From assembly GCA_964506645.1 (NCBI GenBank), contig CAZDML010000002.1, positions 3,012-67,011 on the forward strand: a stretch of DNA of 64,000 nucleotides, written 5' to 3'. Positions 11,943 through 39,021 of this stretch are shown here, one piece after another. The position numbers and the translations under genes are program-made. Below the pieces are notes generated by a model. The model worked only from the letters and a program-made list of their open reading frames with translations, had not been told where the DNA came from and ran no database searches. Position 1 is the first letter of the stretch, and every line of letters starts with the position of its first letter. The DNA comes from an uncultured Elusimicrobia bacterium. GTDB lineage: Bacteria; Elusimicrobiota; Elusimicrobia; 2-01-FULL-59-12.

Positions 11943-12436
11943 GACGGGGTCCCTTCCTTTGGCCAGAGTTTAGAAATAAGGCGGTCAATTGTTTGCTTCA
12001 AATCATCACGGCAGATGCGGCACGCATCCTGCGACATCCCGATGGGATCTGGAATATTCCAGGAGCCAATGGCATCCGGCGGATCGCCGGCAAATTCTTT
12101 GAGCAAAAATGTTTTCGGCTCGGATTTAATAAACTGCTCCAGAATAAAGTTCTTATGCCCTTCTTCCGCCACGAGAATGAGATCGGCTTCCTGAATGTCG
12201 TTGCGCTCGATGGGGCGTGCTCGGTGCGCCGACACATCAATCTTCCATTCTTTGAGCGCATCCGCGACACCGGCAAACGCGGGACGTCCAAACAGAGCAT
12301 GCGTCCCGCGCGAAAACACCTTCACATCGGGAATGCCGTTCTTGGCCAGCCCATCCTTCAGCAGAGCCTCGGCCAGAACGCTGCGGCAGCAGTTGGCCGA
12401 ACACACCATGAGAATCGATTGCGGACTCTTTTTCAT
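11939..12436 (-). CDS. low-molecular-weight protein-tyrosine phosphatase (LMW-PTP/ArsC-like fold)
   Basis: P-loop CX5R motif at the N-terminus ([18 protein letters not shown]) and a conserved DP motif (..WNIPDPIG..). It overlaps the glyA start by 4 nt. Confidence 0.8.
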
Positions 12437-13158
12437 TTCCCGAAGAGGACCCGTTCGAGATCCTTTTTGGGAATGGCCCCTTCACGTTTTACAGAAAACG
12501 GAAAGGCGGAAACATCAATCACGGACGACGCTTCTTTAATACGGCAACGACCGCCATCGATCGACCACGCCACACGTGCGCCAAACAACCGATAGGCTTC
12601 TTCCCCAGACACCGCCGGTTCATCGCCCGATTTATTCACGCTCGTGGTCGCCAGTGGAAGCCCGGCCTGTTTTAAAAGTGCCAAGGCGATCGGATGATCG
12701 GGGATGCGCACGGCCATGGTTTCGCTCCCCCCCGTCACGAGCCGCCCGAGCGCCGAGGCGCGCAGGACAAGGGTAAGAGGTCCGGGGCAAAACACTTTGG
12801 CGAGTTTGAAGGCTTCACGAGGAATTTCTTCCACCAGCGGGGCCGCCGCTTCCAGAGAGGACACGAGAAGTGCCAGGGGTTTACGCCACGTTCGGCCTTT
12901 CAGGGCATAGATGGCGCGAATCCCTTGCGGGGAAAATGCGCTCGTCCCAATGCCGTAGACCGTTTCCGTCGGAAAGATAGCAACGGCACCTTCTATCAAA
13001 GAGCGGGCAATCTGTTTCAGCTGAGCCGTGCTGGGGGCTGCGTGCTGCGCATGGATTAGAATCCCTTTTTTCGACTCAGGATTCAGCGCTTTCTTCACAG
13101 CACTTTTTTTACGTGCGATAGCGCGCGTTGATGTCGACATATTGTCCCGTAAAGTCAC
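12433..13158 (-). CDS. tsaC: L-threonylcarbamoyladenylate synthase, YrdC-domain type
   Basis: ..AVAIFPTETVYGIGTSAFS..IRAIYALKGRTWRKPLALLV.. is the YrdC/Sua5 signature. The true start is possibly MSTSTR at about 13140. The tsaC-PTP-glyA order mirrors the Bacillus ywlC-ywlE-glyA neighbourhood. Confidence 0.85.
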   Translation of the reverse strand: MTLRDNMSTSTRAIARKKSAVKKALNPESKKGILIHAQHAAPSTAQLKQIARSLIEGAVAIFPTETVYGIGTSAFSPQGIRAIYALKGRTWRKPLALLVSSLEAAAPLVEEIPREAFKLAKVFCPGPLTLVLRASALGRLVTGGSETMAVRIPDHPIALALLKQAGLPLATTSVNKSGDEPAVSGEEAYRLFGARVAWSIDGGRCRIKEASSVIDVSAFPFSVKREGAIPKKDLERVLFGK

Positions 13159-14404
13159 AGGTCCAATACCAACCCTGAGCCTTTCCTTGGTGCACGCGAA
13201 TCGTAATAATGACTTCCTTCGCCTTTAACGGTTCTCGCGCCTTTTCCGCAGACACCGCCGTCGGGGCACCCTGTCGAAATACGCACAAGGTTCCAAAAAA
13301 GATATCCACTTTCGATGGATCCAGGACCACGCCCGAACGACCGATCGCGGCGAGAATACGTCCCCAATTTGAATCTTCGCCATAGGCTGCCGTTTTGACG
13401 AGCGGCGATGTCGAGACGGTCATGGCCATCTGCTGGGCTTCGGCTTCGGTACGAGCGCCTTCGACACGAATTTCCAAAAATTTACTGGCGCCCTCACCAT
13501 CTCGAGCTATTTTTTTCGAAAGATCGATACACACCTGATCCAGGGCTTGAAAAAAGGCTTTCTTATCTTCGGAGGACTTAATCCGGACCCCGGAGGCCCC
13601 ATTGGCCAGCACGAAGACGCTATCGTTGGTCGACATATCGCCATCGACCGTCACGCGGTTAAAGCTATTTTCCGTCGCTAGCGCCACATGAGACTTGAGC
13701 GTGGCCACATCAATCTGTGCATCCGTCAGAATGAACCCCAGCATCGTGGCATGCTTGCCTTTCAGAGAAGGCACCGGATGATGTGGCGTTGGCGCGACAG
13801 GGACACGATTGCCTTTGGGTCGATCGCCTAATTTCCCCGTGAGTGTCATAAGCGGGTGAATCATGCCCGCGCCTTTGGCGCAGCCCCAGACTCGGACTTC
13901 TTTGCCGGCAATCAGGATGGACTGGTGAGCAATTTTAACCACCATATCGGTCGTCATGATGGCTTCGGCCGCCTTATGAAAGGCGTGCGCCTGCGTTCCT
14001 TCTTCCGTAAATATCTTCTGGGAAAGCATCGGGATCTCTTCGGACAAAAGATCCATGGGCATAAAATCCCCGATCACGCCCGTGGAGGCAATTTGGACAA
14101 GATCCGGAGAAACATTATGTGCCTGGCTGGCCCATTCGATCGTTTGCTTGGCTTCTCGCACACCGCGCTCACCGGTACAACAGTTGGCGCAGCCGGAATT
14201 CACCATAATGACCTGCGCTTTTCCTTTCTTTAACCGTTCCTGATCCAGAGGGATATGCACGCACTTCACGCGGTTTGTCGTGAAACAAGCCGCGGCGGTG
14301 GCCGGAGTTTCCGAATAAAAAATGGCGAGCCCGTGGCGACTGGGTCGGGGACGATCTTTGCGCGGCAATCCGGCCGCTCGAAACCCTAAGGGAAGCGTAC
14401 TCAT
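13109..14404 (-). CDS. argJ: bifunctional glutamate N-acetyltransferase / amino-acid acetyltransferase
   Basis: ..ATMLGFILTDAQID.. contains the autocatalytic-cleavage Thr region of ArgJ, within an ArgJ-like alpha/beta subunit layout. 431 aa. Confidence 0.9.
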   Translation of the reverse strand: MSTLPLGFRAAGLPRKDRPRPSRHGLAIFYSETPATAAACFTTNRVKCVHIPLDQERLKKGKAQVIMVNSGCANCCTGERGVREAKQTIEWASQAHNVSPDLVQIASTGVIGDFMPMDLLSEEIPMLSQKIFTEEGTQAHAFHKAAEAIMTTDMVVKIAHQSILIAGKEVRVWGCAKGAGMIHPLMTLTGKLGDRPKGNRVPVAPTPHHPVPSLKGKHATMLGFILTDAQIDVATLKSHVALATENSFNRVTVDGDMSTNDSVFVLANGASGVRIKSSEDKKAFFQALDQVCIDLSKKIARDGEGASKFLEIRVEGARTEAEAQQMAMTVSTSPLVKTAAYGEDSNWGRILAAIGRSGVVLDPSKVDIFFGTLCVFRQGAPTAVSAEKAREPLKAKEVIITIRVHQGKAQGWYWTCDFTGQYVDINARYRT

Positions 14405-15438
14405 TTGAGAGCCGTAGTCTCCTCGAATCCGAACATCAGATTCATATTCTGGATCGCCTGTCCGCTGGCGCCCTTAGTGAGGTTGTCGAGCGCTGCAATG
14501 ACGATCGCATGCGTACCCGTCGGGCTGACCGCCACACCGATATGGCACATATTGGTATAGGTGACGCCTTTGACCTCCGGCGATTCCATCGCCGGCAAAA
14601 CAGTCACAAAGGGTTCGCGTGCGTAGTACGCCCCATAGATATCCCGAAGCGCTTCCGCGGACATTTTCTTTTTCAGCGGGGCATAGAGGCAGGCCAGAAT
14701 GCCCCGATTCATGGGCGCGAGCTGCGGCACGAAAATAAATTCTACTTTCTGAGTTCTGAGTCCTGAGTCCTGAGCTGCTTTTGTCCATTCCTGCAAAATT
14801 TCCGGATGGTGCCGGTGGCCCTTGAGTCCGTAAGCCTGCATGCTTTCGTTGGCCTCGGCATAAAGGTAGGTGTTGTCGAGCTTGCGACCGGCACCGGAGA
14901 CACCGCTTTTGGCGTCGATGATGATCGGGCCTTTGCCGAGAAGGTTTTTGGCAAAGAGTGGAAGCCCGGCCAGAATGGAGGTGGTGGCGTAACAACCGGG
15001 ATTGGCCACGAGCTTCGCTTCTTTTATCATTTCCCGGTAGCGTTCGGGCAGGCCGTAGACGGCTTCCTTTAAAAGTTTCGGGACCGGATGAGCACCATAC
15101 CAGGCTTCGTAGGTTTCGTCATCTTCCAGCCGGAAATCCGCAGAGAGATCGATCACTTTTGTGCCGTGCGAGAGAAACGCGGCCGCCGTTTTCGCCGCTG
15201 CGCCATGGGGCAACCCCAAAAACACCACGTCCGAATCCTTCGCGATTGTTTTTACATCCATTTTCTCGCATAGATGGCCGCAGTGACCCTTTAAAAATTT
15301 ATGAATCGAGGCAATCGGCTTGCCGACATAGTTCTCCGAGGTCAGATGACTGATCCGGATGTCCGGATGGCGAATGAGGTACCGCAGGAGTTCGCCTCCC
15401 GTATAGCCAGTCGCGCCTATGATGGATATATTAATCAT
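14401..15438 (-). CDS. argC: N-acetyl-gamma-glutamyl-phosphate reductase
   Basis: MINISIIGATGYTGGELLRYL.. (NAD-binding), the catalytic ..ANPGCYATT.. cysteine and a C-terminal ..LDNLTKGASGQAIQNMNLMFG... The start is at the internal MINIS (about 15438). The track ORF extends to 15516 into rsmI. Contains an in-frame heptamer-repeat insertion (see findings). Confidence 0.9.
   Translation of the reverse strand: MINISIIGATGYTGGELLRYLIRHPDIRISHLTSENYVGKPIASIHKFLKGHCGHLCEKMDVKTIAKDSDVVFLGLPHGAAAKTAAAFLSHGTKVIDLSADFRLEDDETYEAWYGAHPVPKLLKEAVYGLPERYREMIKEAKLVANPGCYATTSILAGLPLFAKNLLGKGPIIIDAKSGVSGAGRKLDNTYLYAEANESMQAYGLKGHRHHPEILQEWTKAAQDSGLRTQKVEFIFVPQLAPMNRGILACLYAPLKKKMSAEALRDIYGAYYAREPFVTVLPAMESPEVKGVTYTNMCHIGVAVSPTGTHAIVIAALDNLTKGASGQAIQNMNLMFGFEETTALK
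14747..14774. repeat. 28-nt tandem heptamer array (TTCTGAG TTCTGAG TCCTGAG TCCTGAG) lying in-frame inside argC
   Basis: Seen directly in the sequence. It encodes ..AAQDSGLRTQK.. in the ArgC segment between the PEI(L)Q and V.F.P.L blocks, which is 5-7 residues longer here than in typical ArgC. Confidence 0.6.
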
Positions 15439-16135
15439 CGTTTTCGTTGTCCGTTGTCGTAGGGTGCACCAGCAGCACCACTTCGCCTTTGATTTCTTTG
15501 TCACCCAACCGCTCAATCACACTCTCGATCGAGCCGCGGATAAATTCTTCGTAGACCTTGGTCAGTTCGCGGGCGACCACCACAGGGGTCTCCGGCGGGA
15601 CCAAGCCCTTCACAAGCGCAAGTGTGTCTTTGACGCGGTAAGGGGATTCGTAAATGACGAGGGTGCTTTCCGTTGCCAGGGCCTTGGCAATCATCTTCTT
15701 GGCCCGAGCGGGTCTCCTCGGTAGAAATCCTATAAAAAAGAAGCGGTCTGTGGGCAGTCCCGACGCCACAAGCGCGGTGATCGCCGCACAGGGCCCGGGC
15801 AATGAGACTACCGGGATATCGGCCTCGAGTGCCGCCTGCACGAGCTCGGTGCCCGGATCGGACAGACCCGGCGTGCCCGCATCGGTCACTACCGCCACAC
15901 GCTTACCGTCTTCCAGCGCGCGAATCACTTGATGCGTCTTCCCCGAACTGCTGTGGGCGTGATAACTCCACAACGTCTTGGTGATTCCCAGGTGGTTGAG
16001 AAGCCCGAGCGTCCGGCGGGTATCTTCGCAGGCCACCACATCCACGTCTTTTAAAACCTCGATCGCTCGCAGGGTCAGATCGCCCAGATTGCCGAGCGGC
16101 GTTGGCACCAGATAAAGCGTGCCTGTGTTACGCAT
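15431..16135 (-). CDS. rsmI: 16S rRNA (cytidine1402-2'-O)-methyltransferase
   Basis: ..LYLVPTPLGNLGDLTLRAIEVLKDVDVVACEDTRRT.. together with the tetrapyrrole-methylase fold blocks identifies RsmI. Confidence 0.9.
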   Translation of the reverse strand: MRNTGTLYLVPTPLGNLGDLTLRAIEVLKDVDVVACEDTRRTLGLLNHLGITKTLWSYHAHSSSGKTHQVIRALEDGKRVAVVTDAGTPGLSDPGTELVQAALEADIPVVSLPGPCAAITALVASGLPTDRFFFIGFLPRRPARAKKMIAKALATESTLVIYESPYRVKDTLALVKGLVPPETPVVVARELTKVYEEFIRGSIESVIERLGDKEIKGEVVLLVHPTTTDNENDD

Positions 16136-23900: not shown

Positions 23901-24560
23901 TTTGGCGTTGGTGACATAGATACGTCCCGAGGCATCCACCGCCACCCCTTCCATTTCCGACCCGGTATCAATCGCTTTCAAAAAGATGCCCGTCTTGGAA
24001 AAAAGCTGAACGCGCTTGTTGCCGGCATCGGCGACAAGAATCACGCCGTCTTGGCTCACCGTCACGGCCACTGGATTGCGGAACTGACCGGGGCCTGACC
24101 CATGCTCGCCAAACATCAGCCGTGGTTTTCCATCTGGGGCCAGCACTTGAATACGGTCATTGCCGGTATCAGCGACATAAATCGATCCTTCGCTGTCTGT
24201 CGCTAATCCCTGGGGCTCAGAAAATTCGCCCGCCCCTTTTCCGGCACGACCCAGCAACGGAATATCAACTTCCCCCGAGGAGGTATACACCGTCAACGCA
24301 CTGGCACTGCCGTTGAGCACCCAGACACGCCCTTGCTTATCCACGGTGAGCGCCACCGGATCAAAGCGCTGCGTGGTTGTCGGCGCGAGCAGTGTTTGTT
24401 TGAGCTGGAGAGTGTCGTAGGCGAAGACGGGTGACTGGTAAATTCCAAATCCCAAACACCAAGCTCCCAATAAATTCGAAAAACAAAAACGCCAAACTCT
24501 ATTGTAGTTTCGGCGATTGGAGTTTGTTTGGAGCTTGGAATTTGGTGTTTGGTGATTCAT
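20991..24560 (-). CDS. large secreted multidomain protein: NHL-repeat beta-propeller(s) + FN3 + transglutaminase-like cysteine-protease core + C-terminal TPR repeats
   Basis: Residues 50-620 carry many NHL blades (..YVADTGNDRIQVL.., ..ILVADAGNKRVQLF.., ..YIADTDNHRVVVF.., ..FIADRGNNRILK..). FN3 lies at about residues 630-720. A Cys-His-Asp block (..SGDCSDVVAMFASAL..PGHLFLMFDTGE..) marks the transglutaminase-like core. The C-terminal TPRs include ..AYNNLGNIAFLHKEYEQAESLYKEAAQRDP... It has a long N-region signal peptide. Confidence 0.7.
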   Translation of the reverse strand: MNHQTPNSKLQTNSNRRNYNRVWRFCFSNLLGAWCLGFGIYQSPVFAYDTLQLKQTLLAPTTTQRFDPVALTVDKQGRVWVLNGSASALTVYTSSGEVDIPLLGRAGKGAGEFSEPQGLATDSEGSIYVADTGNDRIQVLAPDGKPRLMFGEHGSGPGQFRNPVAVTVSQDGVILVADAGNKRVQLFSKTGIFLKAIDTGSEMEGVAVDASGRIYVTNAKLRQIEQWSTAGQLFRSYSGAEPGMKAFSKPGALAMSAQGLLYVADRGASQFREMDLNGHTLGAFGRAGSGEGQFKSLNALACWNDQLYIADTDNHRVVVFALSRQNYPPAVTPTPTVRFQAALKNLWNVDADRLALLSDGRLAAYSAKTGTITLLDSDGKPSDTLPLKTKLGVRSDIALTVDAAGNYFIADRGNNRILKCDASGNRLAEIGKSASMFKSGQGDLSAPQGLFVNKQGTIFVADTGNSRFQAFNDQGLFLYAGGQKGKELGQLKTPVSVAWDNDKIYIADVDNHKVVSFNASGRFLHEMGMIGGEALLEPRHLSVDREGYLYVLDAERGRIVVYDEQGVFVGGFGAPGLSKGFLNKPRSFVLSDDGRLYTAEEGRIQVFRVVVAPPAPTQLKATGGEGYVELAWEASKMRFPPKYVVYRALPPAEPQKLKETVETTFTDDSLLPETTYTYMVAAQSLQGATSVPSVPVRVMAKPSTSGPRLEIVSAQFDDIFSAYYKYYSRVPFGKVVLRNNGPAPVQKLKIDFAIQGYMDFPSDTPIDELRFRQEKEVPVLATFNNKILEVTETTPIQSQVKLTFYQGGQENTVVKNFPLKLYSRNSIRWDHKERFAAFVTPNDPPVIDVARSLVLPYEDVHAVSPLPAPIKTAWALFAGLGTYGISYVPRPNNPYDRVSLDSSTVDSLQFARETVSRKSGDCSDVVAMFASALESLSVPSCALDVPGHLFLMFDTGESDLQVLGLPEPMVVSYAGTYWIPLEITMLGSSFMEAWKHAADEYRRLSAAGKVGVIDIHQAWQTYEPATLAETAVVTKMPAHEAVETRFGKDWKALVDLRWQTRLAAAKQELEKNPAAGEPQLQMGILAAEFRRFDEARAYLNKARSDAATAAAAYNNLGNIAFLHKEYEQAESLYKEAAQRDPADAGIHLNLARMYLKQGFAKKASDAFSKAVKMDPSLKEKYGDVSALAQ
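24440..24550 (-). other. strongly self-complementary TTGG/CCAA-rich segment overlapping the first ~40 codons of the NHL gene (possible 5' regulatory RNA structure or a small inserted repeat)
   Basis: CCAAGCTCC (about 24533-24525) pairs with GGAGCTTGG (about 24467-24459). This is flanked by CCAAACACCAA / TTGGTGTTTGG and a nested CGCCGAA / TTTGGCG stem. Confidence 0.4.
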
Positions 24561-30174: not shown

Positions 30175-32228
30175 GCCGCTTTTCCTTGGGTCGGACGAGT
30201 TTTGAGCGATTCCAGCGCGGATTTCATGTCCTGCATGGACTGTTTAATGTCGCCTAACGCTTTTTGTGCCACGGGTGTTGCCGCCGCTGGCTGAGTCGCT
30301 TTCTTTTCCAAATCCAATTTTACACTATTCCATTCCGATTCTTTCTTGGTCCATTCCGTTTCCTTTTTCGCATGCTCTTGCTGCAGCTTATTGATTTCAT
30401 TCTGCACATTTGTGAAAGCATCTTTGAGAGCACTTTGGGCCGATTTCCACTGCTCTTCCTTGGCCGACCATTCCGCCAGCGTGTGCTGCGCTTCTTTGTA
30501 ATCGGATTGGCTGCGATTCAGATCTTTTTCAAGCATGTCCTGGCGCGCTTTGAGTGCTTCCATTTCTTTCTGTGCGTCATTCATATCCTGCTGATGGGCC
30601 AGAATCGCTTCTTTCTGTAGCTGCAGTTCCTGTTGGCGAGCGTCGAGCACCGTACGCAACGAGCCTAGCTCCAATTGCATGGCCTGGCGGGATTCCTCGG
30701 CTTCTTTTTCTTTCATTTGCACTTCAGCAATACGAAGCAACAGTTCCTTGGACTGTTTTTCATACTGATCGCGCTCTTCCACCAATCGCGACTCTGCCTG
30801 CTGGACATGCTGCTGAGCAAGATTGAGCTGTTGTTTAAATTCAGCAATGGCAGCTGTTTTTTCATGCTCGATTTTTGTGCGTTCCTTTTCAAGACGCTGC
30901 TGGTATATCACGGGCATCTCATGGAGCACCTCTTCGCGCGCTTGGAGGCGAATCGACTCTGCCTGTTTTTTCCATTCACTGCGCTCCACCTCAAACCCAC
31001 GTTTCATATTCGCGATTTCAATGCGTAGCTGTGCAATATCTTCTTCGCGCTGCGTTACGCCGTATCGGGCCGTGTCGCGTTCGGAGCGGAGTTGCGACAG
31101 CATCCCTTCCCAGTACTGTGCCCGTTCCTGATCACGGCGGACAAATTCCCGTTTAATATCTTCTTCGCGCGATACGACCTGCGATTCCAGGCGCTGGCGA
31201 ATCTCAAGATGATCCTGCTCAAGTTGGTCGAGTTTGGTCTGCCAACGCAAGCGCTCCTGCTGTTGCTGGACGTCCGTCTGCTGAACCTGTGACTGTAAAA
31301 GTGCGATCTGGGCTTTGAGCTGCCCTTCGTCGCGCAAGCGTTTTTCCAGTTCGGCCTGCATTTTCTGCTCATAGGTCTGCCGGTCCTGCAGGGCTGTCTC
31401 TTTGATGCGCTGAAGCATTTCATCTTTCTGGTCCAGCGCATCTTGCAATTTTTCATTGTCGAGCTCGGCCTGACGTTTCAGCTGGCTAATCACTTCATCG
31501 CGCTCACGCGTGGAGGTCATCCACTGATTTTTTTCTTCGTGATAGCGACGTTCGATCTCGCGCATCTGGCGCGTTAAATTCTGTTCGACTTCGCGCTCCA
31601 TCTTTTCACGTTCTTTAAGCTGATTCTTCAGCGCGATCATCCAGGTTTCCCGCTCATCGGCAATCCGGCGTTCCAGATCTTTAATCTGGCCTTCCGCCTT
31701 GCCGCGCGACTGCTGCAGTTCCTGTTCGTATTTTTCCCGGCGCAATTTTTCCTGCATGTCACGCAGCTGCTGTTCAACGCGCACGGAAAGATTTTCATCC
31801 TCCTTGGCCTTGAGCGTCTGGATCATAAGCTTCTCGTGTTCTTCCTTTAACTGGCGTTCCAGGTCCTGGACCTGTTTTTCCATGGCTTTCTTGGATTCCA
31901 TCTGTTCCTGAAAACGGCGTTCCATTTCCTGCATTCGGGCTTCCAGGAGATTGGTCATAGGGGCGGCACCGGGCGTCGGGGGCATTCCCATAGGCGTCAT
32001 CGGACGCGGCGGCATATTGGGCATGGACGGCTGTGGCACAGCGGGCGCAGGCGTTGGAGCGGGCGCGGCGGCCTTGGGCATCGCAGGGGGCATGACACTG
32101 CCCATCGCTGCAGGCGGTGGGGGCGGCGGCGGGGGTACCGGCCGGCGCGCGGGCGGCGGCGGGGGTACAGGTTTCGAGGCTCCGGGTCCCGGCGGGGGCG
32201 GCGGTGTCATTCGCGATTCTTCAGCCAT
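30171..32228 (-). CDS. polyproline (FH1-like) N-terminus + ~580-aa continuous coiled-coil protein
   Basis: MAEESRMTPPPPPGPGASKPVPPPPPARRPVPPPPPPPPAAMG.. followed by uninterrupted E/K/Q/R/L heptad-rich sequence to the C-terminus. An AAAGGAG Shine-Dalgarno sequence lies 8 nt upstream. No signal peptide or TM. Confidence 0.6.
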   Translation of the reverse strand: MAEESRMTPPPPPGPGASKPVPPPPPARRPVPPPPPPPPAAMGSVMPPAMPKAAAPAPTPAPAVPQPSMPNMPPRPMTPMGMPPTPGAAPMTNLLEARMQEMERRFQEQMESKKAMEKQVQDLERQLKEEHEKLMIQTLKAKEDENLSVRVEQQLRDMQEKLRREKYEQELQQSRGKAEGQIKDLERRIADERETWMIALKNQLKEREKMEREVEQNLTRQMREIERRYHEEKNQWMTSTRERDEVISQLKRQAELDNEKLQDALDQKDEMLQRIKETALQDRQTYEQKMQAELEKRLRDEGQLKAQIALLQSQVQQTDVQQQQERLRWQTKLDQLEQDHLEIRQRLESQVVSREEDIKREFVRRDQERAQYWEGMLSQLRSERDTARYGVTQREEDIAQLRIEIANMKRGFEVERSEWKKQAESIRLQAREEVLHEMPVIYQQRLEKERTKIEHEKTAAIAEFKQQLNLAQQHVQQAESRLVEERDQYEKQSKELLLRIAEVQMKEKEAEESRQAMQLELGSLRTVLDARQQELQLQKEAILAHQQDMNDAQKEMEALKARQDMLEKDLNRSQSDYKEAQHTLAEWSAKEEQWKSAQSALKDAFTNVQNEINKLQQEHAKKETEWTKKESEWNSVKLDLEKKATQPAAATPVAQKALGDIKQSMQDMKSALESLKTRPTQGKAA

Positions 32229-32249: not shown

Positions 32250-35200
32250 TTACGACGCTTTCGGTTTTTTCTTCAAATCGAGTGACGCGCGCAGGCGGCT
32301 GGCCCACGTGCTGAGCTGCGTATTGGACGGATCCAGTGACAGCGCCCGATCCACGGCCTCGGCGGCACGCTGCTCATCGCCCTGGGCATGGTAGGCCAGA
32401 GCCAGGTACTGATACGCTGCACCCCAATGAGCATTCTTCTCCAAACATTCCTGAAACGACCGGATAGCATCGGGCCACTGCTGCGCTTGATAAAAATGGA
32501 CACCGGCCTCAAACGACGACCAGGCCGCCGCGCCCAGGCGCTCGGTTTTGGCACTGGTCGGCGAGAGCACGCCGTCTTTAAGTCCTTCGACCTGCGTGCG
32601 CAGGTTGTCCACCAGCTTTCGAGTGCTGTCGCGCAGCGCCGTCATTTCCTTGTCCTGTTTTTCAATCTGGGTCATGAGCTGCGTAAAGAGGGTTTCACGT
32701 TCTTTAATCAGCGTGTCAAAGTGTTTCTTCATCTCGGCCTGCTGGTCCTGAATCTGTTTGATCTGTGTTTCGAGCTGGCGACGCTGAGCTTCAAGTGCGT
32801 GCTGGGCGGATGCGTCGCGAGCGGCTGCATTTTTGGAAGACTGCATATCGCGCTCCTGCATCGCAGCCAGCTGTGTCTGCACCGTTTTTAGCTGAGTCGC
32901 CACGCGGGCCTGCTCGGTCTTATGGTGTTGGCGCACGCGGTTTAATTCTTCCGTCGACTGCTTTTTCAGCTTCTCCAGTTCTTTGCGACGTTTCTCCGCT
33001 TCTTCCTGCAGTCGACGGTCGCGCCATTCCAGGCGGTTTTTTGCCACCCGCAAATCTTCTTCCTTAATATGCAGTTGTGATTCCCAGGTCGATTGCTGCT
33101 GTTGGGTGACCTCTTTCAAATGGGCAAGCTGAACACGCAGCGGTTCAAGGTCTGTCTCGATCTGCCCCTTCAAGCGCTCCTGCTGGGTTTCCATCTCAGA
33201 TTCTTTGAGGCTGAGTTCCATGTGCAGCTTGGTCATGGACTCTTCCATGCGGCGCACTTCTTGTTCCGCATGTTTTTGCAGCTGCTGAATATCTTCTTCG
33301 AGCTGTCTCTTTTCCTGATCCAGTGCCTGCTTTTCATTTTGCCACTGTTCCAGAGACGAGCCCCACTGCAACTCTTCGCTGGATTCGCGTTTCTGAATTT
33401 CGGCGACCGCACGACTCATCTCCGCTTCTTTGTCAGCCACCTGACGCTGATAATGGGCTTGGAGTTCCTCCAGCTCCTTCTCACGTTTTCGGATCTGCGA
33501 CAAGAGAGCCTGGCGGTCCTGGTCATGTGCCGTTTCCAGCGATTTGATTTCGCTCTGCAGCCGTACGTCCCACTGCGCTACTTCCTGCCGCAGCTCGCTG
33601 ATTTCATTGGCTTTTTCTTTGCGCAGCGCTTCCCAATGATCCTGCGCCTGCGCAAGATGGCTTTTGAGCTGGTCAATCTGAGTGCGCAGCGCCGTATTGG
33701 TGGATCTCCAGGAATTGACCTTTTGATTAAATTCTTCGCCCAGCACTTTCAAGCGGTCTTTGGAGGAGGTCAGGAGATCTTCCAACTCCTGTTCCTTGGA
33801 CGCCAACTGCGATTCAAAAGATTTGCGGTCTTTTTCTGTCTGCGTTTGCAACGCGGTCAGCGTTTCCTGGACCTTGCGTTTTTCTGTGTCAAAGTGGGTG
33901 CTCTTTTCCACAATCTGCTGATCACGCTGCATCTTGGCGCGGTTGAGTTCGTTTTCCAGCTGACGGATTTCCTTTTCACGGTTGGCCAGCTGTCGTTCCG
34001 ACACTTCCTTATGATCTTTGAGCTTCCATTCCAATTCGTCTTTGGCTTTTTCCAGCTGGAAGCGTTCTTCAGCAAATTGTTTGGCCAAACGGTCGAGTTC
34101 GCCTTCCCGCTCAGCTTCTTTAGCCAGCAAATTGGAGCGCAGCGTCGTGATTTCGGAATCGCGAGCGGCACACTTTTTCGCCCATTCTTCTTTGAGCTGA
34201 ACCAGCTGTTCTTTGATCTTTTCTTCTTTGTCATGGCCGCGGCGCATGAGCGTGGACAACGCACGGTCGTAGCGGTCAAGGGTCTGCTGGTGTTTGGCCT
34301 GATCTTTGACGAGCTGCTGCTGAATATGGGCAATGCGTTCCTCGCGAACGCGGATTTCCTGAGGGAAGCCGGCCTGCGACTGTTTGAGTTCTCCCTCAAT
34401 CTGCTGCAGCATGTCTTGCAACGTGCGGGCTTTGACGGTGGCCGAATGGATCAGCTCGCGCTTCTTGGCTTCGTGCGCCACGGCCTGCTGGCGCACCTGT
34501 TCTTCGAGCTGTTCAACCAAAAGGGTTTTTTCGGCGTGTTGTACTTTGCCGGAATTGACCAGGGCTTCCTGCTCAGAGCGCAGGGCATCGAGCTTGGCTT
34601 TGAATTCGGCACGCGCCTCACGAAACTGGGTATCCCGCGTCTCGCGTTCGGTCTTGGCTTTCTGCGTGATCTGCTGCAGCTGTTCTTTTAGTGCTTTCTG
34701 TTCGTTTTCCAGATCAAAAAGCTGTTTGTCGTGTGTCAATTTTTCATCTTTCAATGCTTCCTGCAGCTGCTGGTAGCGATCTTGGAGCGGCTGCACCTGC
34801 TGGTCAAGGATTTTTTGTTCTTGTTCCAGTTTCTGGGCATGCAGCATTTCCTGCTTCTGAATTTCGGCTTCCAGCGCCAGCTTCTCTTTTTCTTTCTTGT
34901 CGACTTCCTGACGCCAATAAATCTGGATGCGTTCTTTGTCCCCTTGAGCCGCGGCCAGCTGCTTTTCCATCGAAGCCCGCTCGGCGTCAATCATCTGCTC
35001 CTGCTCATGGGCAGCGGCAACCAACTCTTTGTAGCGGGTTTCCAAGTTCTGGCGCAGAGCACCCAACTGATTGGCCTTTGACTGCACTGACGCTTTGTAC
35101 TGTTCACGTGCCTGAGCAATTTCTTTTTCTAAATTGAGGATTATGCTCTGTGCTTTGGCTGTTTCTCTCTGACAGGCGTCCCGTTTTTCCTGCATGGCCT

Positions 35201-37217
35201 GGTCAAGCAGTTCCGGCAGGTGGGCCAAGCGAGCGGCCATATCTGCACGCTCTTTTTCTTTGGCTTCCATCGTCTTCTGGAACTTAACGTCTTCTTCACG
35301 GCGCACAGCCATAAAAGCTTCAAGCGCTGCACGGCGTTCTTCAAATTTCTTGCGCAACCGCTCTTCCTGCTCCGCATTGCGCTTGCGCAGCATTTCTTCT
35401 TTGGCTTTGAAATCTTTTTCCAGCGTTTCAATGGCGTTACGGTGGTCAATCTCGTAGCTTTGGGACGATTCCTGAAGCTTGGTGATTTCGCGTTCAAGCG
35501 CACGCACGCGAGAGCGGGTCGCTTCCACCTGGCGCGAGAGCGCCGTTTCTTCCGTAGTGTATTTTCCTTTCAGCGCGGCTTCCTGAGTCGCAAGCGTGGC
35601 GGCGAGTTCTTTGATCGCCTGCTCTTTAAGTCTAATCTCTCCCTGGAAGCGCAGGCGCTGCTCCTGCAGTCCTTGTTCGGCTTCGCCTTTCTGACGTTCC
35701 AGCTCGACCGTTTCGGCCTGTAAAACACGTGCAGCATCTTCGTTCTGCTGCGTCAAATCCTGCAAGCGTTTTTGAGCACTGGCTTCCAGTGTCGCTTGTT
35801 CCTCGCGCAGCTCAACCGAGCGCGCTTCAAATTGTTTCAGCTTCTCCTTCTGCTGATCTTCCAACGCCTGGAGCTGAACCGCGAGCACTCGCTTTTGCTC
35901 ATTGATAGCACCCATGCGCTGCCCGTACTCTGAATCGAGTTTGCGTAGAGCCGTGCGGATGGATTCCTGAGTCTGGGTGAGTTCTGCTTCTTTATTTTCC
36001 AGGGAGATTTTCCAGCTCTGCTGTTCCTCTGCCAACTGACGCTGCACGGACTGCACCTGCGCTACGGCAGAGGCCACGGTCTCTTCTAAAATTTTCTGTG
36101 CCTGTTCCGCGCGGGTCTTGGCATCCGTTTCCACAAGCACTGATTTCATCTTAAGCTGCTGAATTTGTTCCTCGCGTGACTGCAAGAGCTGCTGCCAGGA
36201 TTGGTTTTCCTTTTCAAAATGGGCTTTGAGCGCGGTGAGTTTTTCCAACGCGCGGTCGTGTCGGTGCGTAATTTCTTGCAGACGCTTTTCCTGTTCGAGC
36301 TGCCAGGCGGTCTGACGTTCCTGCAGCGCCGAGTGCAGCCGAGTGCGTTCTTCTTCCTTCGACTTCATCGCTTCTTCCCAGGCTTTGCGGCGTTCGGCCC
36401 ACTGTTTCTCCAGCGTCTGCAAACGGGTTCGCCAGAGTTCTTCAGCCGCCTTCTTCTGCGCGTCCTGATCCTGCATTTCTTTCTGCAGGCCGGTCTCGCG
36501 GCGTGCCAGTTCCTGCTTGAGTGCCATCAGTTCTTCATCGCGGGCTTGGATCACTTCCTGCCATTTCTGGCGTTCCTGAAGGAGCCGGGCTTCCTGCACC
36601 TGCACCGATTCCTCGGCCTGGCGCAGCGCCTGCACACGGGATTCTTCTTCTTTGTCCGTGAGATTCTTTTTTTCGATGTGTTCGGCTTCCACCTGACGCG
36701 CGGCCTGTTCAAGCTTCTTTTCGCGGTCGGCAAGCTGGCGCGTCCAGGCCGCAGAATCTTCGTTCAGCTTGCGTTCGAGGAATTTAATTTCCCGCTGCGC
36801 ATCCTGCTGGAGAAACTGCAGGGACTGCTGATTGGATTCGCGCTTTGTCTTAAACGTGATATCGAGTTTTTCCAGCTGCGAGCGCGTCGCCTGGATTTCT
36901 TTATCCAAGTTCTGCAGGCGCACCTGCGCTTCGGCGCGTTCTTTGAGGATCAGGTCTTCGAGGTTCGGCTTATCGGATTTGGGAGTGGACCCGTCTTGGG
37001 CCGAACCGGCTTCCGGTGTGGCGGGCGTTTCTGCAGGAGGAGGTCCGGCCGGTTTTTTGACCGACCGTACTGTTTTGGGGGCTGTTGGTTTCGTGGAAAT
37101 GGGAGCTGACGGAACAGACGCCTCGGACGCAGGAGTGTCCTGAGCCTTGTCTTTCGAAGGCGCAGGATCTGCAGGTTTCTTCCCCCACAGGTTTCGGAAA
37201 CGGTCGGACATGGACAT
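32250..37217 (-). CDS. giant (~1656 aa) coiled-coil protein with a C-terminal TPR domain
   Basis: About 1550 aa of E/K/Q/R/L-rich predicted coiled coil, then TPR-like ..AHWGAAYQYLALAYHAQGDEQRAAEAVDRALSLDPSN... The start is MSMSDRFRNLW (ATG 37217-37215) with a GGGAG Shine-Dalgarno sequence. The track's upstream MHVKK start would lie inside the predicted promoter. Confidence 0.65.
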   Translation of the reverse strand: MSMSDRFRNLWGKKPADPAPSKDKAQDTPASEASVPSAPISTKPTAPKTVRSVKKPAGPPPAETPATPEAGSAQDGSTPKSDKPNLEDLILKERAEAQVRLQNLDKEIQATRSQLEKLDITFKTKRESNQQSLQFLQQDAQREIKFLERKLNEDSAAWTRQLADREKKLEQAARQVEAEHIEKKNLTDKEEESRVQALRQAEESVQVQEARLLQERQKWQEVIQARDEELMALKQELARRETGLQKEMQDQDAQKKAAEELWRTRLQTLEKQWAERRKAWEEAMKSKEEERTRLHSALQERQTAWQLEQEKRLQEITHRHDRALEKLTALKAHFEKENQSWQQLLQSREEQIQQLKMKSVLVETDAKTRAEQAQKILEETVASAVAQVQSVQRQLAEEQQSWKISLENKEAELTQTQESIRTALRKLDSEYGQRMGAINEQKRVLAVQLQALEDQQKEKLKQFEARSVELREEQATLEASAQKRLQDLTQQNEDAARVLQAETVELERQKGEAEQGLQEQRLRFQGEIRLKEQAIKELAATLATQEAALKGKYTTEETALSRQVEATRSRVRALEREITKLQESSQSYEIDHRNAIETLEKDFKAKEEMLRKRNAEQEERLRKKFEERRAALEAFMAVRREEDVKFQKTMEAKEKERADMAARLAHLPELLDQAMQEKRDACQRETAKAQSIILNLEKEIAQAREQYKASVQSKANQLGALRQNLETRYKELVAAAHEQEQMIDAERASMEKQLAAAQGDKERIQIYWRQEVDKKEKEKLALEAEIQKQEMLHAQKLEQEQKILDQQVQPLQDRYQQLQEALKDEKLTHDKQLFDLENEQKALKEQLQQITQKAKTERETRDTQFREARAEFKAKLDALRSEQEALVNSGKVQHAEKTLLVEQLEEQVRQQAVAHEAKKRELIHSATVKARTLQDMLQQIEGELKQSQAGFPQEIRVREERIAHIQQQLVKDQAKHQQTLDRYDRALSTLMRRGHDKEEKIKEQLVQLKEEWAKKCAARDSEITTLRSNLLAKEAEREGELDRLAKQFAEERFQLEKAKDELEWKLKDHKEVSERQLANREKEIRQLENELNRAKMQRDQQIVEKSTHFDTEKRKVQETLTALQTQTEKDRKSFESQLASKEQELEDLLTSSKDRLKVLGEEFNQKVNSWRSTNTALRTQIDQLKSHLAQAQDHWEALRKEKANEISELRQEVAQWDVRLQSEIKSLETAHDQDRQALLSQIRKREKELEELQAHYQRQVADKEAEMSRAVAEIQKRESSEELQWGSSLEQWQNEKQALDQEKRQLEEDIQQLQKHAEQEVRRMEESMTKLHMELSLKESEMETQQERLKGQIETDLEPLRVQLAHLKEVTQQQQSTWESQLHIKEEDLRVAKNRLEWRDRRLQEEAEKRRKELEKLKKQSTEELNRVRQHHKTEQARVATQLKTVQTQLAAMQERDMQSSKNAAARDASAQHALEAQRRQLETQIKQIQDQQAEMKKHFDTLIKERETLFTQLMTQIEKQDKEMTALRDSTRKLVDNLRTQVEGLKDGVLSPTSAKTERLGAAAWSSFEAGVHFYQAQQWPDAIRSFQECLEKNAHWGAAYQYLALAYHAQGDEQRAAEAVDRALSLDPSNTQLSTWASRLRASLDLKKKPKAS

Positions 37218-37237
37218 AGGTTTATTCTCCCGCAGTG

Positions 37238-37265
37238 AGTTTAGTCCGTATTGACAGCATTTCAA
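37238..37265 (-). promoter_or_regulatory. candidate sigma70-type promoter of the coiled-coil operon: -35 TTGAAA (37265-37260), 16-nt spacer, -10 TAAACT (37243-37238)
   Basis: Read on the minus strand inside the 37218-37404 gap. It is followed by GGGAGAATAAACCT-ATG. Further upstream are an AT-rich block and the CTCAG/CTGAG motif array. Confidence 0.35.
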
Positions 37266-37367
37266 GGCTTTTTTTACATGCAACGAAATGGGGAGAAATG
37301 GCCCAAAACAGCTCAGAATGCAGAATTCAATGCTCAGAGCGATAAAAAGACTACCTATATATAAGAT

Positions 37368-37395
37368 TTCTGGGTTCTGAGCCCTGAGTACTGAG
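37368..37395. repeat. 28-nt tandem heptamer array (TTCTGGG TTCTGAG CCCTGAG TACTGAG), intergenic; preceded at 37312-37338 by two copies of GCTCAGA in opposite orientation
   Basis: Seen directly in the sequence. It matches 24 of 28 positions of the array at 14747-14774. Confidence 0.6.
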
Positions 37396-37404
37396 GTGCG
37401 CCTG

Positions 37405-39021
37405 TTATTCCGGGCGCAACTGCTTCATGAACTCGCTGATTTCTTTGTCGTTGGGGTCGATTTCCAGCACGCGGCTCCAGAGCTTGCGAGCGCGGGTATG
37501 GTCATCGAGCAGGAAGAAGGCAGAGCCCATGATCTTCATGGACGTCACATCGTTCGGGTTTAGATCCAGGATGTCCTGGCATTTCTTGATGGCGACATCG
37601 TACTTGCCTTCCAGAATCGCCTGGCGAGCATCGAAGATCTTCTGATCGACCGGGCTGAAGAGTTCCGGACCCTTCGGCCGTTCGGTCTTGTCAAGATTGG
37701 TGTCAGCTTCCATCTTGTTGAGGAGCGACAGGAGCTTCTCGTTGCGCGGATCTTTGAAGTACGCCTGACGCAAAGCAGCAATCGCGCTCTTGGTGTCGTC
37801 GTTGACGTAAGAGAGCACGCCCTTGCGCACCATCGCCGCCGATTCCTCATTACCCATGGCTGACGGTACGTTCGCCACCACTTTCTGGAATTTCTCAACG
37901 AGCACCTGGACTTTCTTGTTTGACGGATCCACGTCCAAGGACGCCTGCAGCTGTTCCTGCGCTGCCAGGAAGTTCCCGGCTTCCATTGCCTTGTAGGCTT
38001 TTTGGATGAGCGCATGGACGTTTTCTTCGCGGCGTTCCAGGACGGAACGGCCAAATTTAAAGGAGACGGAGATGCGGCTTGAGGTTCCCAAGGTGTGCAG
38101 GCCCAAGGCATAGTCAAAGGTCAAGCTCTTTATGGAATAGCCAAAACCCACATCGGTTTCGCGCAGGCCTTCACCCAAGTCGTATTGAATCCCCACACGG
38201 CCTTTGAATTTCTTTGTAAAGCCAAATTCCCCACCCAAATGGAGTCCGGTGTTGGCCGCGAGGTTTTTATCGATATCTGTCGAAAGCAAGAGGCGGCGTT
38301 TGAAGAACTGGTCGGAAAAACCGAAGCGGAAAACCAGAGGCAGTGTGTCGGACGTATCGCCCGAGGTCTTGGCGTAGACGTCCCGGATGGTCAGACCAAA
38401 GCGACGCAGACCATCGCGCGTATCGAGCAGAGCCCCCAGGTCAGCTGCCAGAGAAGAATCGGACGAGGTATCCACAGCACGAGTGATCTGGCGAATCGAG
38501 GTTCCAATTGCCACATGGTCGACCACCTTGCGGCCGTAGGAGAAGCTGTTGGCCGATTCGCTCACCTGGAAGCCACCGCCCTTTTCTACGCTCGTATAGG
38601 TCTGCGTGTTTGGGTCGATTTTGGCGGTCACACGTTCAAAGCCGCCGCTGGAGAGTTGTGTCATGCTGACGCCCCAGGCGCTGCCTCCCTTCTTGGACGG
38701 ATGCACATAGGAGTAGAAATTGTATTTGGTTTCACCGTAGAGGGTGGCCTGCAGGAGGGTCAATTCTTTGCGGGTGAGCTGGGACATGCCCGCCGGGTTC
38801 CAGTAGGTGGCGCTGGCATCATCCGCAACGCTGACGAAGGCACCGCCCATGGCCAGGCTGCGGGCGCCGGCGCCGTAGGACAGGAATTCCGTCACCTGGC
38901 CGCCGGTGGCTTCAGTGTGGCCAATCGACGGAACGAGTGCGATGAACAAAATTAAAACGCACGCTCTCTGTAGAGAGAACATGCGCCCAAAAAACCCAGC
39001 AAAGGTCTTCGTTAAGTTCAT
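37405..39021 (-). CDS. FadL/PorV-family-like outer-membrane beta-barrel (N-terminal ~330 aa) fused to C-terminal TPR repeats
   Basis: Signal peptide (..CVLILFIALVPSIGHTEA). The N-terminal motif ..FLSYGAGARSLAMGGAFVSVADDASATYWNPAGMS.. matches the FadL/TodX/PorV family plug-hatch region (FadL: ..GLGRAYSGEGAIADDA..NPA..). Alternating beta-strand patterns follow to about residue 330. The C-terminal 200 aa are TPR-like (..AYKAMEAGNFLAAQEQLQASLDVDPSN.., ..ILEGKYDVAIKKCQDILDLNPND..). No Shine-Dalgarno-like sequence. Confidence 0.5.
   Translation of the reverse strand: MNLTKTFAGFFGRMFSLQRACVLILFIALVPSIGHTEATGGQVTEFLSYGAGARSLAMGGAFVSVADDASATYWNPAGMSQLTRKELTLLQATLYGETKYNFYSYVHPSKKGGSAWGVSMTQLSSGGFERVTAKIDPNTQTYTSVEKGGGFQVSESANSFSYGRKVVDHVAIGTSIRQITRAVDTSSDSSLAADLGALLDTRDGLRRFGLTIRDVYAKTSGDTSDTLPLVFRFGFSDQFFKRRLLLSTDIDKNLAANTGLHLGGEFGFTKKFKGRVGIQYDLGEGLRETDVGFGYSIKSLTFDYALGLHTLGTSSRISVSFKFGRSVLERREENVHALIQKAYKAMEAGNFLAAQEQLQASLDVDPSNKKVQVLVEKFQKVVANVPSAMGNEESAAMVRKGVLSYVNDDTKSAIAALRQAYFKDPRNEKLLSLLNKMEADTNLDKTERPKGPELFSPVDQKIFDARQAILEGKYDVAIKKCQDILDLNPNDVTSMKIMGSAFFLLDDHTRARKLWSRVLEIDPNDKEISEFMKQLRPE

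Follow-up and report, generated by a model that had tools for sequence, protein, structure and literature searches.

Heptanucleotide repeats have been known since 1990 as an over-represented class of long repeats in many bacteria, and their origin and function are unexplained. They include the STRR heptanucleotides of cyanobacteria, such as CCCCAGT in Calothrix and Anabaena. In this study, we analyzed two arrays of the heptamer CTGAGNN in a stretch of 64,000 nucleotides (hereafter the window) from an uncultured Elusimicrobia bacterium of the phylum Elusimicrobiota (GenBank assembly GCA_964506645.1, contig CAZDML010000002.1, positions 3,012 to 67,011 of the forward strand). One array lies in frame within argC, and the other follows the stop codon of an outer-membrane-type gene. 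The arrays have defining features of the heptanucleotide class represented by STRR, the G-rich heptamers of Xanthomonas and Nostoc, and the TAACTGA repeats of Beggiatoaceae, and what is new within this class is the CTGAG core, the phylum Elusimicrobiota, and the translation of one copy.

According to work cited in passages of PMC4679880 and PMC4692102, heptamers are the most abundant class of long repeats, and polymerase slippage has been proposed for them. Rehm et al. (2015, PMC4692102) described the G-rich heptamer repeats GGGAATC in Xanthomonas and GGGGA(C/T)T in Nostoc PCC 7120. These have heterogeneous units, occur mostly as four-unit arrays and in inverted pairs, lie within 50 bp of stop codons, and vary between related genomes; the authors linked the four-unit preference to G-quadruplexes. 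The same paper mentions three heptanucleotides in Calothrix PCC 7601. MacGregor (2015, PMC4679880) reported TAACTGA direct repeats in marine Beggiatoaceae, Cyanobacteria, and Bacteroidetes, noted that the two orientations of the repeat differ in their stop codons, and proposed that the sets, most of which precede a start codon by a few nucleotides, are sites for a translational regulator. In the papers that were searchable, no tandem units of the CTGAG type were found in print for bacteria.

Two heptanucleotide arrays in the window

14401..15441, minus strand: argC, N-acetyl-gamma-glutamyl-phosphate reductase, intact (Pfam PF01118, PF22698, and PF02774; PDB 1vkn, E 1e-80)
14747..14774, minus strand: heptanucleotide array 1, with four units that read CTGAGNN on the plus strand and CTCAGNN in the argC sense
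37368..37395, minus strand: heptanucleotide array 2, with four units of which the first is degenerate (CTGGG); the arm that is intact in an inverted pair

On the plus strand, array 1 reads TTCTGAG TTCTGAG TCCTGAG TCCTGAG and array 2 reads TTCTGGG TTCTGAG CCCTGAG TACTGAG. Read back from the sequence, both occupy exactly the positions given in an earlier note on this DNA, while the 24 of 28 identical bases counted there become 25 of 28 on recounting. With three flanking bases on each side, the identity is 29/34, and the likeness is gone beyond this 34-nt block. In both arrays, four 7-nt units stand head to tail and in register, as in STRR-type repeats. Tandem Repeats Finder called array 1 (14749-14774, period 7, 3.7 copies, 94% matches), and at a score of 30 the more heterogeneous array 2 was not called. 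The three-unit pattern CTGAGNNCTGAGNNCTGAG, with up to two mismatches, has four overlapping matches in the window, all in the two arrays, against 0.06 expected from shuffles (approximately 70-fold over chance; none of 100 shuffles reached four). The CTGAG/CTCAG pentamer itself occurs in the window about as often as expected (62 observed vs. 74 expected, and 23 vs. 25.5), with no enrichment and no restriction avoidance.

The genes around both arrays are on the minus strand; in the sense of these genes, the unit of either array is CTCAGNN, and the two arrays have the same orientation, as previously claimed. Because 7 and 3 share no factor, three units present all reading frames. The codon cycle of (CTCAGNN)n, CTC AGN NCT CAG NNC TCA GNN, is stop-free in every frame, whereas that of (CTGAGNN)n, CTG AGN NCT GAG NNC TGA, contains a TGA in every frame within 21 nt. 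Within genes, therefore, only CTCAG-sense arrays can persist, which accounts for the orientation of the argC copy.

Array 1 is translated within ArgC

The protein encoded by the window argC, which contains semialdehyde dehydrogenase domains, is 100% identical to an NCBI protein (P0001), and its nearest named relatives are from Elusimicrobiota. Array 1 lies in the segment that follows the catalytic HRHHPE motif. In the argC sense, it reads GCTCAG GACTCAG GACTCAG AACTCAG AAA and supplies the codons CAG GAC TCA GGA CTC AGA ACT CAG (QDSGLRTQ; with neighbors, (A)QDSGLRTQ(K)). The AlphaFold (AF2) model of ArgC (mean pLDDT 87) has a helix at residues 211-224, a coil at 225-233, and a strand at 234-238, and array 1 is thus predicted to encode the end of the helix and the following coil.

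The segment from HRHxPEx to FxP has 21 residues in the window ArgC but 15 in 60 of 72 unrelated ArgC genes, and alignment with Thermotoga maritima ArgC (1vkn) leaves two 3-residue gaps in the array segment. The reading frame is intact, and the segment exceeds the usual length by six residues, in agreement with the idea that the array adds residues to a loop without breaking the frame. In the closest relatives (75% identity), however, the loop has the same length and is coded by AAG/AAA-rich (Lys) DNA without heptamers, so that array 1 is not an insertion relative to them. The insertion proposed in the earlier note therefore stands as a loop longer than that of most ArgC proteins, and not as a gain over the nearest relatives; a loop of equal length with non-repetitive codons was one half of what that note had named as contrary to its proposal. 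The RNA of the window argC loop is less structured than shuffled sequences (z +2.2), and the array there is a solo arm without an inverted partner.

Arrays and hairpins in the argC loop of relatives

Among 116 Elusimicrobiota homologs, the ArgC loop, delimited slightly differently from that of the 72 unrelated genes, ranges from 8 to 38 residues, with 14 residues in 43 homologs and 19-20 in 24 (mostly Lys-rich). The loop DNA of nine relatives contains from zero to approximately nine heptamer units with differing cores, as single arms or inverted pairs, and most of the long-loop alleles have 7-nt arrays at the homologous spot. P0012 has GCTCAG GGCTCAG GGCTCAG AGCTCAG in the same position and frame as the window copy, and P0016 has these units as well, shifted by 12 nt in the 5' direction. 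The loop is equally long in P0016 and in P0121, a member of its cluster that is at least 90% identical. This is the only informative pair for the comparison of array lengths across strains that the earlier note had suggested, and it gave no difference.

Five other alleles contain two arrays that are mutually reverse-complementary: (GCCGAGG)n followed by (GCTCGGG)n in P0046 and P0068; (GGGACGA)3 followed by CCTCGTC GCTCATC TCTCGTG ACTCGTA in P0048; (GTTTCGA)n followed by (AACTCGA)n in P0045; and (CTCAGGC)n followed by (GGCCTTG)n in P0032. The cores of the hairpin alleles are free of TGA, with NCGAG/CTCGN in place of CTGAG/CTCAG, and the variable core position co-varies between the arms (C:G, A:T, and T:A). 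Predicted RNA folds are -40.1 kcal/mol for P0045 (z -7.5), -40.2 kcal/mol for P0048 (z -5.4), and -42.2 kcal/mol for P0046 (z -2.6), and P0068 has a z of -1.7.

In a neighbor-joining tree from which the loop was left out, long-loop alleles are scattered among short-loop alleles. This pattern suggested repeated independent insertion into the argC loop, which sliding-window identity and site patterns ruled out. P0048 is 85-98% identical to its insertion-free sister P0030 along the gene, but over the 60 nt that precede the insertion on its 5' side this identity falls to 65-68%, and there P0048 is 79-88% identical to P0068 and P0046. The comparison of P0068 with its own sister P0083 gave a similar pattern. 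Four-taxon sites supporting the allele type or the background type numbered 4 and 1 in the 60-nt stretch, and 5 and 106 elsewhere (Fisher p 8.5e-5). Because of this local switch in identity and these site patterns, we conclude from the alignments that homologous recombination has carried the hairpin-bearing tract into at least three backgrounds. What spread could be documented took this route rather than transposition. A recent transfer between the window argC and P0012 or P0016 was rejected, as identity does not rise locally between them. Where P0048 has three copies of GGGACGA, P0030 has one at the homologous spot, which points to a local tandem duplication.

Coding copies of the CTCAG type are not limited to argC: on the Elusimicrobiota contig that carries P0032, the array GCTCGGC GCTCAGT GCTCAGT GCTC (L123, 324-348) lies in the sense direction inside an open reading frame (ORF) of 712 amino acids without a Pfam domain. 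Arrays of AACTCCG, AGGGGAC, and GCTATCN were observed just downstream of the argC end in L143 (11158-11189), L194 (1454-1491), and L207 (5528-5564), which are unrelated ArgC-anchored contigs and, in one case, a contig from Elusimicrobiota.

Array 2 and its inverted partner

37405..39021, minus strand: outer-membrane-type gene upstream of array 2 (Pfam UPF0164 above cut-off, weak FadL/TodX, C-terminal TPRs)
37339..37367, no strand assigned: A+T-rich spacer sequence of 29 nt between the arms
37311..37338, minus strand: degenerate inverted arm of array 2, GCTCAGA ATGCAGA ATTCAAT GCTCAGA on the plus strand, period 7, units 1 and 4 intact
37238..37265, minus strand: sigma-70-like promoter match of the downstream coiled-coil gene (TTGAAA-16-TAAACT), a consensus match only

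The stop codon of the UPF0164/TPR gene, labeled PorV-like in the earlier note, is at 37405-37407, and the gap between it and array 2 is 9 nt, not 10 as stated earlier. The two inverted GCTCAGA copies mentioned in the earlier note are present, with positions corrected to 37311-37317 and 37332-37338. Their spacing of 21 nt keeps the 7-nt register, and the stretch 37311-37338 parses into four 7-nt units, of which the inner two are decayed. Because CTCAG occurs only 23 times on the plus strand of the whole window, two in-register copies beside array 2 are unlikely to have arisen by chance. Site 2 is a decayed inverted pair of four-unit arms with 29 nt between the arms; as called by a search for inverted pairs (I6), the arms are 18 nt long and 83% complementary.

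In the RNA fold of site 2, GCUCAGAA pairs with UUCUGAGC across the spacer, no more stably than in shuffles (z -0.85), and the pair is followed by UGUUUU. No terminator was called at site 2, and no Rfam match was found; together with the fold, these results led us to reject a terminator or a known RNA. Judging from the promoter-like match, the repeat pair appears to fall between the end of the gene and the next promoter.

Elements with other units in the window and in Elusimicrobiota

24440..24555, minus strand: heptamer-periodic palindrome with CCAAANN/TTTGGNN arms (I1; 51-nt arms, 6-nt loop)

The units of this palindrome are AAATTCC AAATCCC AAACACC and GTTTGGA GCTTGGA ATTTGGT GTTTGGT, and its RNA folds at -41.1 kcal/mol (z -4.8). 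It immediately follows the stop codon of folD (24562) and lies within the first approximately 40 codons of an NHL/TPR gene ORF, whose N-terminus is approximately 29 residues longer than in two orthologs; the 3' arm codes for a signal-peptide-like hydrophobic stretch. The 64-kb window thus contains two CTGAG arrays and one TTTGG-type palindrome, two of the three within 10 nt of a stop codon. On the Elusimicrobiota contig with P0045, a perfect (ATTGCTG)n/(CAGCAAT)n palindrome, matching even in a variant unit (L208, 1725-1813), extends from the stop codon of one gene to 6 nt before a convergent ndk and folds at -64.8 kcal/mol (z -12.4).

The wider class of heptamer arrays

We searched species-representative genomes for (CTGAGNN)3CTGAG, for which approximately one chance match was estimated in 596 Gb. 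(CTGAGNN)4 arrays occur at no fewer than 120 genome loci in many phyla, including Acidobacteriota, Chloroflexota, heterocystous cyanobacteria, Nitrospirota, Planctomycetota, Verrucomicrobiota, Gemmatimonadota, Bacteroidota, Proteobacteria, Patescibacteria, and Actinobacteria. The following properties were measured among the 120 matches listed, which contain 189 arrays. The units are often mixed, with a fixed core and a variable spacer, and ABAB patterns are common. Fifty-six arrays (30%) have an inverted partner within 120 nt, and the arrangement CTGAG..CTCAG is favored by 23:5. About a third (61/189) lie in long open frames, and 57 of these 61 are CTCAG-sense. Non-coding arrays are found within 10 nt of the stop codon of a long ORF in 23% of cases, vs. 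6% for random intergenic positions, and neither orientation with respect to the upstream gene is preferred (23 vs. 21). After removal of one ascertained array per locus, the counts of arrays with three, four, and five units are 20, 33, and 7.5, with a mode of four.

The listed CTGAG loci are full of other heptamers too. In viral contigs, the permuted control cores GCTAG and CGTGA gave 67 and 116 loci, compared with at least 120 for CTGAG. The notion of CTGAG as a special core, first drawn from the number of genome loci, was dropped after these controls: heptamer arrays with many cores are common, and nothing demonstrably sets CTGAG apart. In unselected ArgC-anchored metagenome loci, the density of seven-periodic arrays is only 0.76 per 100 kb; this control consists of 79 loci among the listed metagenome matches of ArgC from all bacteria, with one close relative (L127) set apart.

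Several contigs classified as viral, L264, L277, L292 (IMGVR_UViG_3300005578_000008, 40.8 kb), L267, and L270, have 4-12 separate (CTGAGNN)4 arrays on both strands, a density far above that of the window. Large ORFs with 2-4 separate CTCAG-sense four-unit arrays each were observed on contigs of Nitrospirota, Shapirobacteria, Fortiea, and Nodularia (L035, 47-4544; L067, 90-2598; L098, 3533-7244; and L091, 4816-8000).

Comparison with described repeat systems

The window arrays resemble STRR in having tandem 7-nt units in short dispersed arrays and differ in their CTGAG core, the Elusimicrobiota host, and the translation of one copy. CTGAG arrays were also found in genomes of Nostoc, Nodularia, Fortiea, and Trichormus, alongside arrays of ACTGGGG, the reverse complement of STRR1. 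The four units of both window arrays and the inverted arm at site 2 correspond to the four-unit, paired arrangement of the GGGAATC type. Unlike the G-rich heptamers, CTGAGNN cannot form a quadruplex, and the four-unit preference is present nonetheless.

The TAACTGA sets are likewise 7-nt direct repeats of 2-6 units scattered over phyla, with one orientation closed by stop codons and the other translatable, and at one locus (L020) CTGAG arrays grade into AACTGAA and AACTGAT units. In contrast to TAACTGA, one window copy follows a stop codon and the other is within a gene.

Rickettsia palindromic elements (RPE) are 100-150 bp long and are not made of 7-nt units. The argC hairpin alleles P0045, P0046, P0048, and P0068 are RPE-like in being palindromic and in frame, and in occupying a segment on the surface of a housekeeping protein that is conserved and is not destroyed by them. 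The window argC copy is unlike RPE, being one 28-nt arm without a palindrome and with unstructured RNA.

As in phase-variable contingency loci, one array is in a coding region, and the length of its unit is not divisible by three. Contingency loci differ from the argC case, which concerns a housekeeping biosynthetic enzyme and four non-identical units, with the frame kept in all lineages examined; instead of copy-number changes that switch the frame, we found equal loop lengths and only in-frame arrays. Compared with elements of the REP/REPIN or MITE type, the inverted doublet at site 2 is decayed, and the 64 kb contain two copies that are 25/28 identical.

Origin of the arrays

We propose that replication slippage on a local seed, in steps of 7 or 14 nt, creates and alters the arrays, that inverted arms may form by intrastrand template switching, and that arrays would be retained only at harmless sites. 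In argC, the harmless site would be the surface segment of variable length. Since this segment varies between 8 and 38 residues among Elusimicrobiota, the array is most likely simply translated as a harmless extra hydrophilic loop, and array-bearing segments would be exchanged between lineages by homologous recombination. At site 2, in a 3' untranslated region, an inverted pair would be in decay; array 2 would be its better-preserved arm and would form at most a weak hairpin ahead of a short U-run. Taken jointly, slippage on local seeds, template switching, retention where harmless, and recombinational exchange of alleles probably explain the arrays, although with considerable room for doubt. 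The slippage or expanding-repeat option of the earlier note is borne out by loop arrays that vary among relatives, by the one and three GGGACGA copies of P0030 and P0048, and by the large number of genome loci. Neither window copy is likely to be a switch, because both arrays are short and heterogeneous and relatives at least 90% identical have no change in length.

Several observations weigh against this proposal. Arrays 1 and 2 are alike beyond the core, in the order of their spacers (TT,TT,YC,..) and in their flanks (T.. and ..TGC), and the argC arrays of three different genomes have the spacer pattern G,G,A,A in common. Copying or a shared ancestor would account for these likenesses better than slippage at each site independently; the scan of the source organism covers 64 kb of its genome. 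The co-variation of arms in the hairpin alleles could reflect selection on the hairpin. The four-unit mode, the conservation of five of seven positions with two left free, and the enrichment near stop codons depart from the expectation of pure neutral slippage and hint at selection or a defined generating mechanism. At the strain level, the single informative cluster pair contributed no length polymorphism.

The leading alternative is a functional hairpin or an array for single-strand binding, that is, a 3'-end stabilizer or terminator, or a 7-nt-phased platform for a protein whose monomers each cover approximately 7 nt, such as a cold-shock-domain protein, with the argC copy as a by-product or solo arm. 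The four-unit mode, also reported for Xanthomonas GGGAATC (PMC4692102), the enrichment of arrays within 10-50 nt of stop codons, and the 30% of listed arrays in inverted pairs with a 23:5 bias to one arrangement are all as this explanation would have it, and CspB is given as binding one protein per heptamer in work cited in a passage of PMC4679880. Very stable folds were obtained for L208 (z -12.4), for 24440-24555 (z -4.8), and for argC alleles (z -5.4 and -7.5), while the site 2 fold, with its UGUUUU, has a z of -0.85 and no called terminator, and the window argC array is a solo arm less structured than shuffles. The arms co-vary between argC alleles, but copying by template switching would also give co-variation. 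Furthermore, the two orientations with respect to the upstream gene are about equally frequent (23 vs. 21), and one third of the arrays are inside genes. We therefore regard a functional hairpin as unlikely, though worth keeping in mind.

A broader form of the same idea is that four-unit arrays and inverted pairs constitute one pan-bacterial class of structured elements, selected or actively generated, rather than slippage debris. This is a speculative reading, which we keep alive because arrays without G-tracts have a mode of four units and lie close to stop codons, and because the hairpin tract has co-varying arms and has spread. If true, the four-unit rule would be independent of G-quadruplexes, and the 3' ends of genes and permissive protein loops would have been colonized; the spread of the argC hairpin between Elusimicrobiota lineages with co-converted flanks would point to drive (biased conversion, homing-like) or selection for the hairpin. 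The four-unit preference, earlier ascribed to G-quadruplexes, holds for a unit that is unable to form them. The argC gene offers a natural allelic series, which runs from no array through a single arm to a complete hairpin whose arms co-vary and which recombination has moved; in such a series, slippage, template switching, selection, and drive could be distinguished. For annotation, a short repeat found in frame in a conserved enzyme can be of repeat origin and not a functional motif.

A miniature mobile element appears improbable. It would be an array of approximately 28-34 nt, or a REPIN-like pair, copied by a transposase or another enzyme, with both window copies from one master. The 29/34 identity of the window copies including their flanks, the inverted pairs resembling REP doublets, and the genomes with several same-type four-unit arrays per 8 kb are compatible with such copying. 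The scatter of long-loop ArgC alleles among short-loop alleles, which would also speak for it, is explained by recombination tracts with co-converted flanks, and the units of the arrays follow the local resident sequence, as in the GGGACGA seed. No terminal repeats or target duplications are visible at either array, no transposase was seen near the copies (a systematic transposase search of the window ORFs was not made), and the countless different cores would be unexpected from one sequence-specific enzyme. The small-mobile-element option of the earlier note thus retains the identity of the two copies and the inverted pairs in its favor, and loses ground to the documented recombination.

An array of sites for a CTGAG/CTCAG-specific DNA- or RNA-binding regulator, or for a restriction-modification enzyme (CTCAG is a known type IIS recognition sequence), would account for a core that is conserved while two positions vary, but this reading, the third option of the earlier note, is largely refuted and highly improbable, as the arrays occupy a coding loop and a site 9 nt past a stop codon instead of keeping a fixed distance to a promoter or start codon, the orthologous arrays have other cores (CTCGG, CTCGT, and CTCGA) where a regulator site would be conserved, equivalent elements in the same genomes have unrelated units (TTTGGNN and ATTGCTG), control cores are about as frequent in viral contigs, and the pentamer occurs in the window at close to its expected number.

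Neighboring genes and minor repeats

The gene downstream of site 2 (ORF 32250-37283, minus strand, 1677 residues) is rich in Glu, Lys, and Gln and has a coiled-coil appearance. Just downstream of its end at 32250, Tandem Repeats Finder reported a GGC-rich repeat with periods of 3 and 12 (32113-32165). On the other side of the outer-membrane-type gene, positions 39337-62127 of the minus strand form one ORF of 7596 residues. A weak period-7 array of CGTGCTG (3.3 copies, 75% matches) is located at 13027-13049, inside the Sua5/YrdC-like ORF 12433-13158.

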